From the IMG/VR virus record IMGVR_UViG_3300037484_000265, positions 1-27,005 of that record: a DNA stretch of 27,005 nucleotides; one strand, written 5' to 3'. The translations under genes and the position numbers were made by a program. The DNA comes from a virus (taxonomy: Duplodnaviria > Caudoviricetes). The notes beneath the pieces are model-generated. The model searched no databases and had not been told where the DNA came from. It saw only the letters and a list, made by a program, of their open reading frames with translations. Position 1 is the first letter of the stretch. Every line of letters starts with the position of its first letter. This document shows positions 12,933-25,017 of this stretch, one piece after another.

Positions 12933-13785
12933 ATTGTTCTATTGCTTTAAATATTTCATAAGCTATTTGCGGGACTATTGCATTTCCGAGTGCTTTAATT
13001 CTGTCCACCCTATTGGAAATCCCATCATTTCTTCCACAAAGAGGGGACTGAGCTGGCCAAATTCCGGCTTTGCATATAAATTGTGTATTTTCACATTCAA
13101 ATCTGTTTCGGGGTTTATTCTGTGATGATTCTTCGATCTTGGGGATCTGTAATCCCGTGCTTTGGGTGTTGGTAACAAATTGTGAAACTGCATCCAGTTT
13201 ATCATATTGAACTGTCTTGAATTGTCCCCGTATTTTCTGCTCATTAATGGCAGTCCTTCGGTTTTTAATTTGATTACTTTCTCCGTTTTGTCTGGAGACT
13301 GCATTGATTGAGGTATAGGCAATAATCCAAAGTCTGTCCCTTCTATGTCTTGCGCCAACGGATACAGCTGGAATAATAAATTGTTCCGTTGTGTAGCCTT
13401 CACCTTCCAAATCAGCAATAATATTGTCGAGTTCCATGTCAATGATTCCAGGAACATTTTCGCCAACGACATAGGACGGTTTAATTTCCCGTATAACCCT
13501 AAGATATTCCGGCCAGAGGTGGCGGTCATCTGCCTTGCCTTTTCGCTTCCCGGCAACGGAAAAAGGTTGGCAAGGGAATCCACCTGTAAGGATGTCGATA
13601 AGTCCTCTGTACTTTGTCCCGTCAAATTCTTTAATGTCTCCATATCTTTTAACATTTGGAAAATTCTTCTCTAATACTTTCGTGCAGAACTTGTCAATCT
13701 CGACTTGAAAAATATTCTCCCATCCCATCCATTCAGCCGCCAAATCAAAACCACCAATGCCGGAAAAAAGTGAACCATGATTCAT
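12916..13785 (-). CDS. DNA cytosine-5 methyltransferase (motifs I-VIII and X)
   Basis: LFSGIGG (I), GGFPCQPFS (IV), ENV (VI), HRRDRLW (VIII), RIKALGNAIVP (X). No motif IX in this frame. Confidence 0.92.
   Translation of the reverse strand: MNHGSLFSGIGGFDLAAEWMGWENIFQVEIDKFCTKVLEKNFPNVKRYGDIKEFDGTKYRGLIDILTGGFPCQPFSVAGKRKGKADDRHLWPEYLRVIREIKPSYVVGENVPGIIDMELDNIIADLEGEGYTTEQFIIPAVSVGARHRRDRLWIIAYTSINAVSRQNGESNQIKNRRTAINEQKIRGQFKTVQYDKLDAVSQFVTNTQSTGLQIPKIEESSQNKPRNRFECENTQFICKAGIWPAQSPLCGRNDGISNRVDRIKALGNAIVPQIAYEIFKAIEQYEKIL
12975..13655 (-). CDS. Nested +1-frame ORF, putative beta subunit of the C5 methyltransferase (possible start ATG 13529)
   Basis: 226 codons open wholly inside the MTase gene. 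LLPIP/LLPTP..RD TRD-like motifs and motif IX-like LSPLFVEEMMGFPIGWT. Confidence 0.65.
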   Translation of the reverse strand: MLKDMETLKNLTGQSTEDLSTSLQVDSLANLFPLPGSEKARQMTATSGRNILGLYGKLNRPMSLAKMFLESLTWNSTILLLIWKVKATQRNNLLFQLYPLAQDIEGTDFGLLPIPQSMQSPDKTEKVIKLKTEGLPLMSRKYGDNSRQFNMINWMQFHNLLPTPKARDYRSPRSKNHHRINPETDLNVKIHNLYAKPEFGQLSPLFVEEMMGFPIGWTELKHSEMQ

Positions 13786-14435
13786 GTCCTTCGTGAATTT
13801 CCAAGTAACTCCATGATATTAAACATCTCTTTGAAGCGGTCAACGGTTTGTGCCCCGTATTTCTTCGTAAAAGTGTCGACCTTATAATTTGATGTTGCAA
13901 AAGTCAAAGCCCCGTTATCGTACCTCGAGGCGAATAGTTCCAGGATCGGCCTCTGGATCGTACCGTAATTATTGACGTATTCTTGTTCTTTTCCGAGGTC
14001 ATCGATAAGTAAATACTTACTGTTATACTCAGTCGTTTCCTCTTTCACGAGAATCTTATTCAGGTCCTGAGCCAAAAACGGAAGAAATATCTTGCCAGTT
14101 AATAGTTCGATTATCCCGGCGAAACCTTTAAGCAGGATCGTCTTTCCTGTTCCTAGCCCTCCGAGTAGCAGGATTCCCTTCTGAAGATCGCCCCGGAAAC
14201 CTTCCGAGAAAGTAAGGTAATGAAACAAGTCATCAATGACAATCTCATTTTCCTTATCAATTTTAAATGGCTTAAATATCCTTCGTATGATCAATGCCCT
14301 GGTACATTCGAGAATCAACAGCTCCCGGAAGTCGGGAAAATTTAAACCTGGTGCTGAGGGCCGTTTTTTCATTGCGTCAATCCTGTCGGATTCAATCGTG
14401 AACTTCATCTTTGAAATAACTTCATCAATTTTCAT
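13782..14435 (-). CDS. DnaC/IstB-like AAA+ ATPase (helicase loader)
   Basis: Walker A GGLGTGKT, Walker B LLIDDLG.E, TSN sensor, YG...DRF.EM. Confidence 0.88.
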   Translation of the reverse strand: MKIDEVISKMKFTIESDRIDAMKKRPSAPGLNFPDFRELLILECTRALIIRRIFKPFKIDKENEIVIDDLFHYLTFSEGFRGDLQKGILLLGGLGTGKTILLKGFAGIIELLTGKIFLPFLAQDLNKILVKEETTEYNSKYLLIDDLGKEQEYVNNYGTIQRPILELFASRYDNGALTFATSNYKVDTFTKKYGAQTVDRFKEMFNIMELLGNSRRT

Positions 14436-14578: not shown

Positions 14579-15241
14579 TTAATAGTCGGTATCTTTAATT
14601 CCCTTGTTGTTGTTAAAAGTCTTTTTCTCAAAAACAGTAAAATACATTATTTGCTGCGGATCTTTTTTCCTGAGTTTTAATATAGACAGAAAGTTAGTTT
14701 TCCAGAAATCATCTATCCTGGTTCGTTTAATAATATTTTTTATATGCTCAGGTTTATGTCCGTCAATTCGAATAAGTTTATCAAGCGTATCACACCAATC
14801 CTGTTTTTGTTTTTCGGTTTTAGGTCTACAATTCTCATCAAAAAAAATCACAACTTCATTATAAAGATTTTCGATTTCTTTATCAATTACAATTATATCT
14901 TTATTTACATCTTCATTTTCATTTTCCATATGTGGGTCCATATGTGGGTCCATATGAACACTTTTTTTTAAGTTTTTTCTTCTGCTTTCAGTATAGTTAT
15001 TACGTTTATTAGTTTCGATTACCATGCGTTTATTATAAAAATATCCATCTTCCTGGTAGAATTTGCACCAAATATCTTCATCTTTTTCGCCGCAAATTTT
15101 AAGCATATCTTTTTCAGTAAGTTTTCCATTCTGATGTTGCAGGCAAAGAAGCATTATGTATTTACCTCTCTGTTCATCTGTCATTAGAATAGTTCCGGTT
15201 ATAAAATCCTGTGTGTAAAATAAAACGGCTGGATCTTTCAT
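14579..15241 (-). CDS. Replication initiator protein (DUF1376/YdaU-like N-terminus)
   Basis: KDPAVLFY..DF..GT..M..EQRG.YI.LLC.Q N-terminus, repeat-containing linker, C-terminal DDFWKTNFLS..KLR. Upstream of the DnaC-like gene. Confidence 0.8.
   Translation of the reverse strand: MKDPAVLFYTQDFITGTILMTDEQRGKYIMLLCLQHQNGKLTEKDMLKICGEKDEDIWCKFYQEDGYFYNKRMVIETNKRNNYTESRRKNLKKSVHMDPHMDPHMENENEDVNKDIIVIDKEIENLYNEVVIFFDENCRPKTEKQKQDWCDTLDKLIRIDGHKPEHIKNIIKRTRIDDFWKTNFLSILKLRKKDPQQIMYFTVFEKKTFNNNKGIKDTDY
14925..14956. repeat. 12-bp tandem repeat (TCCATATGTGGG x2.7), putative iterons
   Basis: Three CATATG palindromes at 12-bp spacing inside the initiator gene, next to T-tracts at 14962-14978. Confidence 0.7.
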
Positions 15242-15258: not shown

Positions 15259-15687
15259 TTATTTTATAGCCTTTTTAAGTTGATTGATTATCTGAGGAAT
15301 AGCATTTGAATGAAATGAATATCTACTAGTACCATTATTAGAATGTTCATCAAAAATACATGTATTAGGATATGTAAGAATTATGAACCTTTTCCCTTGT
15401 TCATTCTTAAATTTAAGTGTAGATATATCGTTAAAATTAACGGAAGATAAGTAAATACCGGGACTATTGTTGCTGATAGATAAATGGCAATCTTCACAAA
15501 TGGTAACGAGTTGAGAATTCTTATATCCCCACGGAGTATTGCCGTTTATATATTCTTTGTGGTGTACGTGAAGCGGAGTATCTTTGTCTCCGCAAAGTTT
15601 ACAGGTAAATTTATCTCGCTTCATAATCTGAAGCCGTTTTTTCTGCCAGCGTGGGTCTTTAAGAAGATCAGAATAAGTTTTACTCAT
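15259..15687 (-). CDS. HNH endonuclease
   Basis: LKDPRWQKKR..I..RD.F.C..CG, LHVHH..Y, L.TICEDCH. Confidence 0.85.
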   Translation of the reverse strand: MSKTYSDLLKDPRWQKKRLQIMKRDKFTCKLCGDKDTPLHVHHKEYINGNTPWGYKNSQLVTICEDCHLSISNNSPGIYLSSVNFNDISTLKFKNEQGKRFIILTYPNTCIFDEHSNNGTSRYSFHSNAIPQIINQLKKAIK

Positions 15688-15702
15688 AGCTTAAAATATA
15701 GA

Positions 15703-15831
15703 AAGCCAAGCCCCGGCCTGATTGGAAAAAGCGACAAAACTTGATCGAATGAAGTTACCGGGGCCGGCTTGTTTTTTAATTTTTCTATGTCTGTCATATC
15801 TTCATTCAATAATTTAAAAGTTTGTCGCTTT
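15703..15831 (-). ncRNA. Structured leader / candidate antisense regulatory RNA
   Basis: GC-rich stem 15758-15770 with 15703-15716 encloses a loop complementary both to 15800-15831 and to early-gene start regions. Mismatches are G-U only on the minus strand. Confidence 0.55.
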
Positions 15832-15834
15832 GTA

Positions 15835-15866
15835 CAAAGATAGTAATAATTCGGATAATTAACAGA
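15835..15866 (-). promoter_or_regulatory. Bacteroidota sigma-A type promoter
   Basis: -7 element TATCTTTG (15842-15835) matches TAnnTTTG. TCTG lies 20 nt upstream as an imperfect -33. Confidence 0.7.
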
Positions 15867-15874
15867 ATTATGAA

Positions 15875-16735
15875 TTATTTTTTCTCATTAAACATCTCAG
15901 GCTCCCCGGATTCTTTCCCTGCCGTCTTTTCCTTTTTCGTTTTCTGAACTGGATCAGTGACGACAGTAGCCTCCTGAATATCTTCAAACATCCCGGCGTA
16001 CTTATCTTCTTTTGACGGGGCCAGATCATTTATTTCATTTTCATAATCATGACTGATTGAAGCGATAAGCTGCTCGGAAAAGTTCGTTTTAGGCAGAAGT
16101 TTGAATAGTCTTTTGAGTGCTGATTTTTTCCACATTTCATCCTCCCATGTTTCCCATGGAGAGAACTTCCGGGCATCTTCATTCTTATAACTCTCCGATG
16201 TTGCCCTTATTTTTTCGATTTCTTCACGTCCGAGTATCTCGAATTGAAAGCCGCCATCACGAAGGAAAGCAATAGCATAAGCGCCGATTTTTTCACCTTT
16301 ATTCGAAAGTGCGGGCTGATGTTTGAAATATGGATCGGAACCACGCCTGTAATCGTACTTGTCATTCGAATAAATAACTCCGGCATCAACATTTTTCACA
16401 GCCCCGGCATCGGTTAGAATCTTTATCATCCCGATGTATGAAATATCAAGGATACATTTCAATTCACCTTTGATCTTCCGGGGAACCAGGTAAGCATACT
16501 TCAAAGCCGGGTTAAGTGTTATTCCTGTCAGTGCTACATTGACAATGGCGTGTTTAACGGACTCTGAATCACATTTCATCAGATAGGGATTATTCATCAA
16601 TATCTGAATAGCAAAGCCAGCTTCACGATTGAAGTTCATCTTGTAATCATTACTAGCTTCAAATTGTTTTTGTGCAGTGAAAACAAGTAACTTGCTCTCT
16701 TTCTCTCTTACTGCTAATTGTGTGTTGTTTTCCAT
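15875..16735 (-). CDS. recT: RecT family ssDNA-annealing protein
   Basis: A.TG.TLNP...AYLVPR, ISYIG...I, GAYA.A, EIEKIR..S, PW.TW..EM..K...KRL.K.LP. Confidence 0.9.
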   Translation of the reverse strand: MENNTQLAVREKESKLLVFTAQKQFEASNDYKMNFNREAGFAIQILMNNPYLMKCDSESVKHAIVNVALTGITLNPALKYAYLVPRKIKGELKCILDISYIGMIKILTDAGAVKNVDAGVIYSNDKYDYRRGSDPYFKHQPALSNKGEKIGAYAIAFLRDGGFQFEILGREEIEKIRATSESYKNEDARKFSPWETWEDEMWKKSALKRLFKLLPKTNFSEQLIASISHDYENEINDLAPSKEDKYAGMFEDIQEATVVTDPVQKTKKEKTAGKESGEPEMFNEKK

Positions 16736-21300: not shown

Positions 21301-21542
21301 AGCGTTTCAATTTCTTTAGTGAGTGATTCGATCTTTTGACGAATATCAGATGCAATATATGGCCTGCCTAATATTTCAAGTAATCCTCTGTAATCTTCTA
21401 ACAACTTACCCTGTTCCTTTATCAGTTCATCCCGCTTTTCAATGAGCGGGAGAAGGTCGGAGGCAGCTACTAAGATAATAGGCATATCGCCTTTTTCTTT
21501 ATAAAAATGTTCTTTAAGTATTTCAATGATTTTGTCTCTCAT
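21297..21542 (-). CDS. Hypothetical coiled-coil protein
   Basis: 81 aa, ATGA overlaps at both ends. Confidence 0.7.
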   Translation of the reverse strand: MRDKIIEILKEHFYKEKGDMPIILVAASDLLPLIEKRDELIKEQGKLLEDYRGLLEILGRPYIASDIRQKIESLTKEIETL

Positions 21543-21670
21543 ATCCTTACAATTTCTTTCGTTACCTCAACTAATCCGGCCCCTTTACAAGCCGGACAAA
21601 CATCAAGTTCATCAGCCTCAACAATCCCCTCCCCTTTACACCTGGGGCATTCTTTGAGACCTTCGGTCAT
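21539..21670 (-). CDS. DnaJ-type zinc-finger microprotein (43 aa, not in ORF track)
   Basis: MTEGLKE-CPRCKGEG-IVEADELDV-CPACKGAG-LVEVTKEIVRI has two CxxCxGxG motifs. ATGA overlap. Confidence 0.8.
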   Translation of the reverse strand: MTEGLKECPRCKGEGIVEADELDVCPACKGAGLVEVTKEIVRI

Positions 21671-21677
21671 AGTGAAA

Positions 21678-22151
21678 TTATCTTGCTGCATCGAGATATA
21701 TTTTATCAGCTAACGCCTTACAATATCCCGACAGGACCGTAACTGTTTCTATGGTGGTTACTTCCTTAGTAAAGACCTCACAGGACTCACTATTAGTCGC
21801 TATGATCTCTATTCTTACTGCCAACATTAAATCATAGTAGACTTTATAGCCAGGCATCCAAACAGTCAGCGTGGCGTGAAGTTCTTTTTTTGATATTGAC
21901 TTCTTAGGTTCCACCTGAAGGGCTGATGAAAGCTTCGTTAAAAGCTTATCGAACCGGTCAGCCGTTAACGCTTCTCCTACCGGGGAAATTCTTATATCGC
22001 CCCTGTAATGATCAGTTTCAATCTTCCATTGCTTGGGAATAAGATCGGCAATATTATCCGATACCATTTTACCATAGAAAATCTGCTTTACGCATTGTTT
22101 CAGGTCCTGTTTAATCTTCATGTAAGAATCCAAATAATCTGTTGTTTTCAT
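21678..22151 (-). CDS. Hypothetical protein
   Basis: 157 aa, preceded by AAAAAAGCGACAC motif. Confidence 0.75.
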   Translation of the reverse strand: MKTTDYLDSYMKIKQDLKQCVKQIFYGKMVSDNIADLIPKQWKIETDHYRGDIRISPVGEALTADRFDKLLTKLSSALQVEPKKSISKKELHATLTVWMPGYKVYYDLMLAVRIEIIATNSESCEVFTKEVTTIETVTVLSGYCKALADKIYLDAAR

Positions 22152-22166
22152 GTGTCGCTTTTTTAA

Positions 22167-22611: not shown

Positions 22612-22710
22612 TTAGTAAATAAATACTGCATAAATAATGATTGTGAGCCAGAGAATGAACGCGAGCTCTACAACATAGTGTAAATTCTGAATCTTTAAAA
22701 TCTTTTTCAT
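22612..22710 (-). CDS. Single-TM microprotein (32 aa)
   Basis: MKKILKIQNLHYVVELAFILWLTIIIYAVFIY, preceded by AAAAGCGACAAAAC motif. Confidence 0.55.
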   Translation of the reverse strand: MKKILKIQNLHYVVELAFILWLTIIIYAVFIY

Positions 22711-22723
22711 CGTTTTGTCGCTT

Positions 22724-22912
22724 TTAGTTTAATTCAACATCTTCCCCTTTTATTAAAGTATCAATAATTTCTGATGCTTCAGCTATTGATAGCCTTTTCA
22801 TAATCTGACTATTGTTATGAATAGTCGAAAATCCATTAAATGATCTCATCAATTCGATTTGTTTGTAGGTACACGGAACTGATGTTTTCTGAAATTTCAA
22901 TATTGTTTTCAT
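22724..22912 (-). CDS. Hypothetical protein, first gene of leftward operon
   Basis: 62 aa with T.KQ...LS..EAS.IID.L pattern, directly downstream of a promoter. Confidence 0.7.
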   Translation of the reverse strand: MKTILKFQKTSVPCTYKQIELMRSFNGFSTIHNNSQIMKRLSIAEASEIIDTLIKGEDVELN

Positions 22913-22933
22913 TTTGTCGCTTTTAATTCATGG

Positions 22934-22964
22934 TAAAGATAAGCATTATTTTAATATCTGCAAA
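22934..22964 (-). promoter_or_regulatory. Leftward (early) Bacteroidota-type promoter
   Basis: TTTG (22964-22961), 19-nt spacer, TATCTTTA (22941-22934), one mismatch to TAnnTTTG. Confidence 0.7.
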
Positions 22965-24208: not shown

Positions 24209-25017
24209 AATTGAAATGCGAATGCGGTCATATTATTGAATATACTGAAAAAGATGTTATTTCTGGACATCGGTTGTTATGCGGGGATTCAACGGATTCG
24301 GATAGTGTGGCGAAGTTGATGAATGGACAGAAAGCAGATATAACATTTACTTCACCACCATATAACGCAGGGAATAACAGATTAGGTGGAAATAAGAACA
24401 AAACTGAATCAAAGTACGCTAATAGCAAAGATGATGATGTTGAACAATGGTTTGATCTTGTTTGTGCTTCATCCGGACTTGCAATACAACACTCAATATT
24501 TGCATTTATAAATGTTCAACAACTCGCAAACAACAAATTTCGATTCATTGACTATTTGCATTTTGTTAAAGAATGGTTTGTTGATGAAATGATTTGGTAT
24601 AAAGGCGAAGGGAATCCCGCATTAGCTCCGGGAGTTTTAAATAGCAGATTTGAGAAGATAATTATTTTAAAGAACGAAGCATTTCCATCAAGGGCAATCA
24701 ATACAGTAAAATTCAGAGGAACAATATCAAACGTATATCAAGGCGGTCAACAAACAAAAAACGAATATTCGCAGCATCACGCAGCAACATTCCCCGTTCA
24801 TCTTCCCGCACATTTCATAAATTCATTTACAATGCAATCTGTCTTGGATTTATTCATGGGAACAGGAACGACAATGGTAGCTGCAAATCAATTAAATCGG
24901 AAGTGTTACGGTATGGAGATTGACCCGAAATATTGTCAGGTAATAATTGATCGCATGAGAAAACTTGATCCTGAGATTGTGATTAAAAAGAATGGAGTGG
25001 TAATTGACAAAATCTGA
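24205..25017 (+). CDS. DNA amino-methyltransferase (beta class), C-terminal half of split ParB-MTase
   Basis: MKLKCECGH extension, then HRLLCGDST, TSPPY (IV), HAATFP, VLDLFMGTGTT (I), GMEIDPKYC.VI..R. Confidence 0.9.
   Translation: MKLKCECGHIIEYTEKDVISGHRLLCGDSTDSDSVAKLMNGQKADITFTSPPYNAGNNRLGGNKNKTESKYANSKDDDVEQWFDLVCASSGLAIQHSIFAFINVQQLANNKFRFIDYLHFVKEWFVDEMIWYKGEGNPALAPGVLNSRFEKIIILKNEAFPSRAINTVKFRGTISNVYQGGQQTKNEYSQHHAATFPVHLPAHFINSFTMQSVLDLFMGTGTTMVAANQLNRKCYGMEIDPKYCQVIIDRMRKLDPEIVIKKNGVVIDKI

Follow-up and report, generated by a model that had tools for sequence, protein, structure and literature searches.

A predicted structured leader precedes the replication genes

The replication operon of this phage opens with a predicted structured RNA leader on the minus strand, and pairing of its hairpin loop with the start region of an upstream open reading frame (uORF) probably lowers expression of the HNH endonuclease-like protein, the replication initiator, and the helicase loader. 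RNA pairing in cis ahead of the replication genes is well supported by comparison of related phages, in which the leader is a widespread family without an Rfam match. What the sequences show directly is the loop–leader complementarity and how it covaries, the uORF with its AUGA overlap, and the surrounding genes.

The window, i.e., the whole stretch of DNA analysed here, is an entire virus record of 27,005 bases, linear and 59% complete. Its early and replication genes form a minus-strand block from 22912 to 8950, which encodes an exonuclease VIII-like protein, RecT, the HNH protein, the initiator, a DnaC-like loader, methylases, and NinG, and its packaging and structural genes are on the plus strand. 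Between the lysis end and the early start, the window runs on without a break. The first gene downstream of the leader (15259..15687, minus strand) is HNH endonuclease-like in Pfam/PHROG profile searches. The initiator gene (14579..15241, minus strand) has a DUF1376-like N terminus below the Pfam cut-off and DnaD/O-like PHROG matches, and the gene of the DnaC-like helicase loader (13782..14435, minus strand) matches phrog_50 with an E-value of 3.5e-13. Short tandem and inverted repeats within the initiator gene (14929-14956; protein HMDPHMDPHM) are possibly origin iterons. HNH genes like that of the window also occur between leader and initiator at L055:5700, L161:9560-9700, and L332:9018, with either leader type. 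Promoter boxes of the form TAnnTTTG, named as the -7 box in PMC9723704, point to a Bacteroidota host for the window phage; that paper also describes translation initiation without a Shine-Dalgarno sequence in such hosts.

The leader follows a Bacteroidota-type promoter, TCTG-20 nt-TATCTTTG, recognized by sequence match at 15835..15866 on the minus strand with the TATCTTTG box at 15842-15835, and its transcription would start near 15833-15830. Two 5' segments on the same strand are the cis targets of the loop. Segment a, the 5' seed AAAGCGACAAACUU (15831-15818), is complementary to loop segment a' with a duplex energy of -15.7 kcal/mol, and segment b (15809-15799, with UUGAAUGAAG at 15809-15800) is complementary to b' with a duplex energy of -12.7 kcal/mol, including one G-U pair. 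Segment b overlaps a 3-codon AUG at 15805 and lies directly 5' of the uORF AUG at 15797. The uORF (15684..15797, minus strand) has 37 codons, runs through the hairpin, and has no Pfam or PHROG match; its stop overlaps the HNH start in the form AUGA (ATG at 15687). The hairpin H2 (15703..15770, minus strand) has a GC stem with arms at 15770-15758 and 15716-15703, which form 13 pairs with one G-U and one bulged U, and a 41-nt loop (15757-15717) that holds b' at 15754-15745 and a' at 15742-15726. An interrupted U-rich tail (15702-15693) is located 3' of H2. A sequence-only reading of this DNA had described the promoter, the segments, the stem, the loop, and three distant start regions with their pairings, and all of these are present in the sequence; it had overlooked the uORF with its AUGA overlap and the position of segment b directly before the uORF AUG.

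H2 alone has a folding z-score of -4.2, and the entire leader one of -2.7. Two folds are predicted to be nearly isoenergetic, a leader-paired fold at -34.9 kcal/mol and a hairpin-enforced fold at -31.5 kcal/mol. The modelled leader-paired fold has 25 pairs, excludes the H2 stem, and could already have formed when transcription reaches about nt 106, at which point the 3' stem arm does not yet exist. It is predicted to bury the uORF start region and to keep a small terminator-like hairpin at 15719-15703. The two competing folds are in line with the cis RNA switch that the earlier reading had suggested.

The loop–leader pairing is kept in related phages

The initiator alignment (68 of 120 homologues listed) led to 80 viral, 80 metagenome, and 55 genome loci. 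The window, L010, and the viral and metagenome loci gave 162 initiator-bearing sequences, and 122 were left after removal of near-duplicates. The family test took every hairpin with a U-run that ends at most 30 nt from the initiator start, with complementarity ignored (n = 53). In 42 of the 53, the inner hairpin has a perfect complement of at least 7 nt in the 60 nt upstream, compared with 5.7 expected from shuffles; the same-sense control gave 2 of 53, and swapped partners gave 15%. The positives have 23 different seed words, and two (L175 and L180) look spurious. Because 14 of the 42 have one seed in common and are related, the count overstates independence.

Two further comparisons, with the short-type and the long-type elements, bear on the same pairing. 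In a sequence-only alignment of 17 short-type elements, two-sided changes occur at six of the seven loop–loop pairs, with pairing retained in 86.6% of the cells concerned. Over the structure as a whole, 84% of cells pair, compared with 36-49% when the partners are slid; the shuffle test is inflated by relatedness, and the sequences tested are also those from which the structure was derived. Of 21 hand-picked long-type loops, 15, among them the window's, pair best with their own leader, with L077, L124, and L295 scored as misses after automatic loop picking had failed. An HMM of 11 long-type relatives, from which the window copy was excluded, matches the window at 15790-15703 with an E-value of 1.7e-5, the next match being at 0.46. 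Hence, the window element is a family member by sequence as well as by layout. The leader is also present in all five cultured phages checked, namely Cellulophaga phi18:3, phi19:3, and phi13:2 and Flavobacterium lillamy9-1 and elemoC, with four different seeds and ahead of other initiator types. The covariation proposed as a check in the sequence-only reading is therefore found: loop–leader pairing is kept while the letters vary.

The same reading had pointed to the Rfam families C4 and isrK, and neither was matched. The window has no Rfam match at the gathering score, nor do 20 element-bearing loci, and the Rfam covariance models run against 15600-15950 with E-values up to 10 gave no C4 (RF01695) match; four matches at E 0.14-8.5 are chance. 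A blastn search of the element against cultured phages returned short chance matches only. Literature searches, as far as titles and abstract openings show, returned no description of the leader family; a motif absent from Rfam could be held in the supplement of PMC5737381 or the candidate tables of PMC8040213. A survey of sequencing runs listed no RNA run that contains the window; one soil DNA run (share 0.06) covered it only in short scattered pieces, which speaks neither for nor against the leader.

A seed/anti-seed pattern scan gave 17 loci, none of the leader family, and a scan for promoter plus seed gave 18 loci with real elements in two (L295 and L305). Among recT relatives the element was not found directly after recT; it is located farther downstream of recT in L004, L006, and possibly L005. 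A generic detector, used for candidate finding only, gave 20 antisense compared with 8 same-sense control matches and did not pick up the element of the window. One covariance model (from A2) was left unused, since seed shifts by the aligner had left it no consensus pairs. Two-segment seeds like the window's a and b are located at L006:18273-18420 and L210:6019-6147. The same design with a 13-nt seed and a TTGACA/TATAAT-type promoter at L171:449-563 suggests a non-Bacteroidota host. Outside the leader family, five viral contigs (L016:10001-10111, L017:5755-5864, L019:10001-10107, L023:551-660, and L025:7633-7744) have another conserved element in common, with ends complementary to each other and a terminator-like hairpin behind it.

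The seed is located at a start codon

Of the 30 hand-picked elements, 18 have an ATG between -3 and +5 nt relative to the seed end, and three have none near the seed. All 17 short-type elements have ATG, GTG, or TTG at the seed (ATG in 12; a count without control). The uORFs differ in length and sequence among relatives, which makes ribosome loading rather than the peptide the likely point. The uORF extends across the hairpin in the window, L032, L053, L119, L124, and L200, where its end meets or overlaps the next start. The AUGA overlap between uORF and next gene is found in the window, L053, L124, and L200, and is absent from some relatives. Other uORFs, e.g., those of L110, L122, L207, and L210, end before or inside the hairpin. 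These early-stopping uORFs, together with the elements that have no ATG near the seed, indicate that coupling is not universal.

The window loop also matches starts of early genes

What the window adds to the leader family is a replication-leader loop that is complementary to the start regions of the first early genes as well. The core AAAGCGACA occurs five times in the window compared with 0.23 expected, and none of 100 shuffles reached five; the five places are the loop, the cis copy in the leader, and three early start sites. A candidate early promoter, TTTG-19 nt-TATCTTTA, was recognized by sequence match at 22934..22964 on the minus strand. All three candidate trans sites are on this strand, and their energies are net values after opening costs. 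The first (22912..22924) is a 13-nt match that runs into the ATG of the first early ORF of 62 aa (-10.2 kcal/mol). The second (22712..22725) matches over 14 nt and ends 1 nt short of the ATG at 22710, which opens a 32-aa ORF (-11.1 kcal/mol); the third (22153..22163) matches over 11 nt and is likewise 1 nt from its ATG, at 22151, the start of a 157-aa ORF (-8.3 kcal/mol). Among the 214 start regions of the window, these three are predicted to form the top three duplexes with the loop. At least three loop matches of at least 11 nt arise in 31 of 500 shuffled-loop trials, a frequency that makes long matches unremarkable by number, and the 12-nt motif with two mismatches is not enriched in the window (8 compared with 4.2). 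The non-random signal is the common core, the strand, and the start-codon position, not the number of long matches. A fourth 11-nt loop match is located on the plus strand (24960-24970), inside a late methylase gene and about 34 nt 5' of the predicted small-terminase start. A small CxxC zinc-finger ORF stands 3' of the 157-aa early gene in the window (21539-21691) and likewise in L122 (2132), L307 (2520), and L308 (6813), with a match to the DnaJ central domain and a weak one to anti-TRAP.

AAGCGAC is present in 14 of 17,427 start regions (274 loci, pattern-selected loci excluded), and seven of the 14 are in the three records with that seed, i.e., the window, L122, and L307. In each of these three, the loop pairs with the gene that comes first behind the early promoter, and the site of this gene changes together with the loop, being GCGACAAAA in the window and GCGACUCA in L122 and L307. 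The best loop partner in L122 and L307 is the start of the first early gene, where, unlike in the window, the site has UC and the loop GA. As L122 and L307 are close relatives, this matched change counts as one event. At least two non-cis start-site seeds were found in only 2 of 42 records. A test of 23 records gave non-cis matches in six, among which L089, L090, and L071 are close to foreign-loop control rates. L308, which has early genes in common and another seed, has the cis site only; five further records examined have no convincing early site, and the seed is absent from the 41 annotated starts of lillamy9-1. The early-start seed copies are thus confined, in the sequences compared, to the window phage and one related lineage. 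Masking of the three early-gene starts in trans by the hairpin RNA may occur, with odds a little short of even. The repression of the first early genes suggested by the sequence-only reading accordingly stays plausible, limited as its sites are to the window phage and one other lineage with the same seed.

Alternative explanations

The early sites would have another meaning if the switch acted in cis only. They would then be start-associated boundary sequences copied between the early genes and the uORF start, and the loop would match them only through its match to its own uORF start. This is a contender that we would neither favor nor dismiss. Start-associated repeats unrelated to the leader loop do precede early genes in two other lineages (L333:5688-6630 and L334:5535-6704; L336:6384-8047), and such sequences, with function unknown, are described for cluster K mycobacteriophages (PMC3203893). 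Even outside the pairing reach of the L122 loop, the site at 22153 is almost the same as L122:767, and most other records, several of them complete, have no start-site seeds. On the other hand, the loops pair over longer stretches with the early sites than with their own cis a site: 13-14 nt with sites 1 and 2 compared with 11 unbroken nt in the window, and 8-10 nt compared with 7 nt in L122 and L307. The sites also precede seemingly unrelated genes in these three records, and AAGCGAC is not a generally favored start context, its 14 occurrences ranking 34th of 210 letter permutations (mean 8.1).

The two folds could also be read in the opposite sense, with leader–loop pairing acting as an activating anti-terminator or pseudoknot that opens the hairpin and frees the downstream start, by analogy with IncI repZ. 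The 25-pair fold of the window, which in the model excludes the stem and is slightly more stable, speaks for such an activator, which we nonetheless consider unlikely: relatives when folded mostly have a 7-10 nt seed and are predicted to keep the stem, the pairing covers the uORF start, and the terminator-like hairpin at 15719-15703 persists in the modelled leader-paired fold. Very improbable is control by a counter-transcript from a plus-strand promoter at 15556-15586, with the seed displayed in a loop of that transcript for a kissing contact with the hairpin. The HNH gene does contain a complete TTTG-19-TATCTTTG match that points through the leader, and a U-run stands 3' of the hairpin on that strand, but a full antisense promoter is present in 1 of 56 elements (the window) and equally in 1 of 56 control windows, and the antisense fold has a z-score of -1.6. 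That AAAGCGACA is a double-stranded DNA operator adjoining both minus-strand promoters hardly deserves any weight. Each of the two good minus-strand promoters does have a copy downstream, at distances of 3 and 10 nt, whereas two others have no promoter; the four sense copies are all on one strand, the inverted copy is in the loop, and comparison of phages shows complementarity maintained through changes of letters.

A model for the switch in cis

In the reading that we prefer, in which loop pairing at the uORF start lowers expression of the replication genes, a ribosome would load on the uORF early in infection, before the loop is transcribed. The loaded ribosome would melt the hairpin and re-initiate at the HNH start, giving the ON state. 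Later, loop pairing, either in cis or via accumulated short or processed hairpin RNA, would mask the uORF start. With the start masked there would be no coupling, the hairpin would stay shut, and transcription would probably terminate early, giving the OFF state. The interrupted U-tail and the 41-nt loop make termination uncertain. The outcome may be negative feedback or a timer on replication, like P4 CI. We infer each step of this race between ribosome and loop, including what turns cis pairing off.

The sequence-only reading had also proposed a role in immunity. A tyrosine integrase (PF00589) was not found in the 59%-complete window, and Pfam scans of the window gave no match to an integrase or a CI-like repressor. 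PF00589 is present in 2 of 24 records, or 1 of 16 near-complete ones, in a search for tyrosine integrases only, and scans did not find the leader in the two records that bear it. Cellulophaga phi18:3 has both an annotated recombinase and the leader. As PF00589 is rare and no leader was found in its carriers, lysogenic immunity fits less well than a timer or a feedback on copy number. Of the RNA circuit first proposed, the cis switch ahead of the replication genes is retained, in view of the covariation and the two folds; immunity finds no support, and repression in trans is kept as plausible. A more speculative extension, less likely than not, is that a single small RNA released from the leader throttles its own operon by masking the uORF start and silences the first early genes by masking their starts; a Bacteroidota phage that does not integrate would then pass from early to replication genes with no need for a repressor protein.

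Comparison with known systems

The comparison draws on PMC4825925, PMC5320573, PMC8546580, PMC3203893, PMC9723704, PMC2864571, PMC5737381, and PMC8040213. P4 CI pairs with seqA and seqC and terminates transcription of replication genes (PMC4825925). Likewise, an antisense segment in the replication-operon leader would pair here with an upstream, seqA-like sequence of the same transcript, and premature termination is predicted. Different from P4, the window has no seqC-like downstream target and no seed at the HNH or initiator start, and its candidate targets belong to another transcription unit; moreover, its leader has no Rfam or sequence match, has a Bacteroidota-type promoter, and is found in mostly non-integrating phages. 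A three-site form, in which an extra seed stands directly before the start of the next gene like seqC of P4, is located at L295:2989-2998 and L332:9009-9018.

The C4 RNA of P1/P7 (RF01695) also has segments a' and b', one of which covers a ribosome-loading region, and its letters vary with the pairing kept (PMC5320573, PMC8546580). The arrangement typical of C4 is present in the window sequence, with b directly before the uORF AUG and a at the 5' end. C4 consists of three stem-loops and is cut by RNase P, whereas the window has one stem and both segments in one 41-nt loop. The window leader would gate replication genes, not an antirepressor, and no covariance model matches it. The analogy to P4 CI and P1 C4 drawn in the sequence-only reading thus likely holds for the way of working and fails for membership, given the single loop and the lack of both an Rfam match and a downstream target.

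The IsrK-orf45-anrP leader of Gifsy-1 has a similar AUGA overlap of uORF stop and next start and a uORF peptide that is not conserved, and it serves both as a terminated small RNA and as part of the mRNA, as is predicted here (PMC4825925). According to the same paper, IsrK activates in trans and the uORF is downstream of the small RNA, whereas the uORF of the window starts upstream and runs through the hairpin, and no Rfam family matches the window leader. The Start Associated Sequences of cluster K phages are asymmetric, have one orientation, and stand just before the ATGs of non-structural genes, as the early sites do (PMC3203893). They differ in sequence and host, and in number, with 11-19 copies of a 13-nt consensus compared with three start-site copies here (PMC3203893). 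A further difference is the antisense copy displayed in an RNA loop of the window.

An arrangement of a related kind is that of a leader ORF coupled to a replication initiator gene. In the rep leader of IncI-alpha/IncB plasmids, leader peptide coupling and loop-mediated long-range pairing precede the initiator; in IncI rep, the pseudoknot activates, and a counter-transcript (Inc RNA) inhibits. Leader ORF coupling and long-range loop pairing ahead of the initiator are the features in common, and the counter-transcript promoter is not conserved among the 56 elements.

Significance

To our knowledge, the timing and limitation of replication in Bacteroidota tailed phages have been little studied. 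Should the trans arm hold, start-associated repeats in phage early genes would gain one concrete function, and if a single RNA runs the whole switch, diversification of the seed would lead to phage-specific superinfection exclusion. The cultured phages phi18:3, phi19:3, phi13:2, lillamy9-1, and elemoC carry the leader, which makes it accessible to experiment. Placed before several unrelated initiator types and with a freely varying seed, the leader would be a common control device for Bacteroidota phages.
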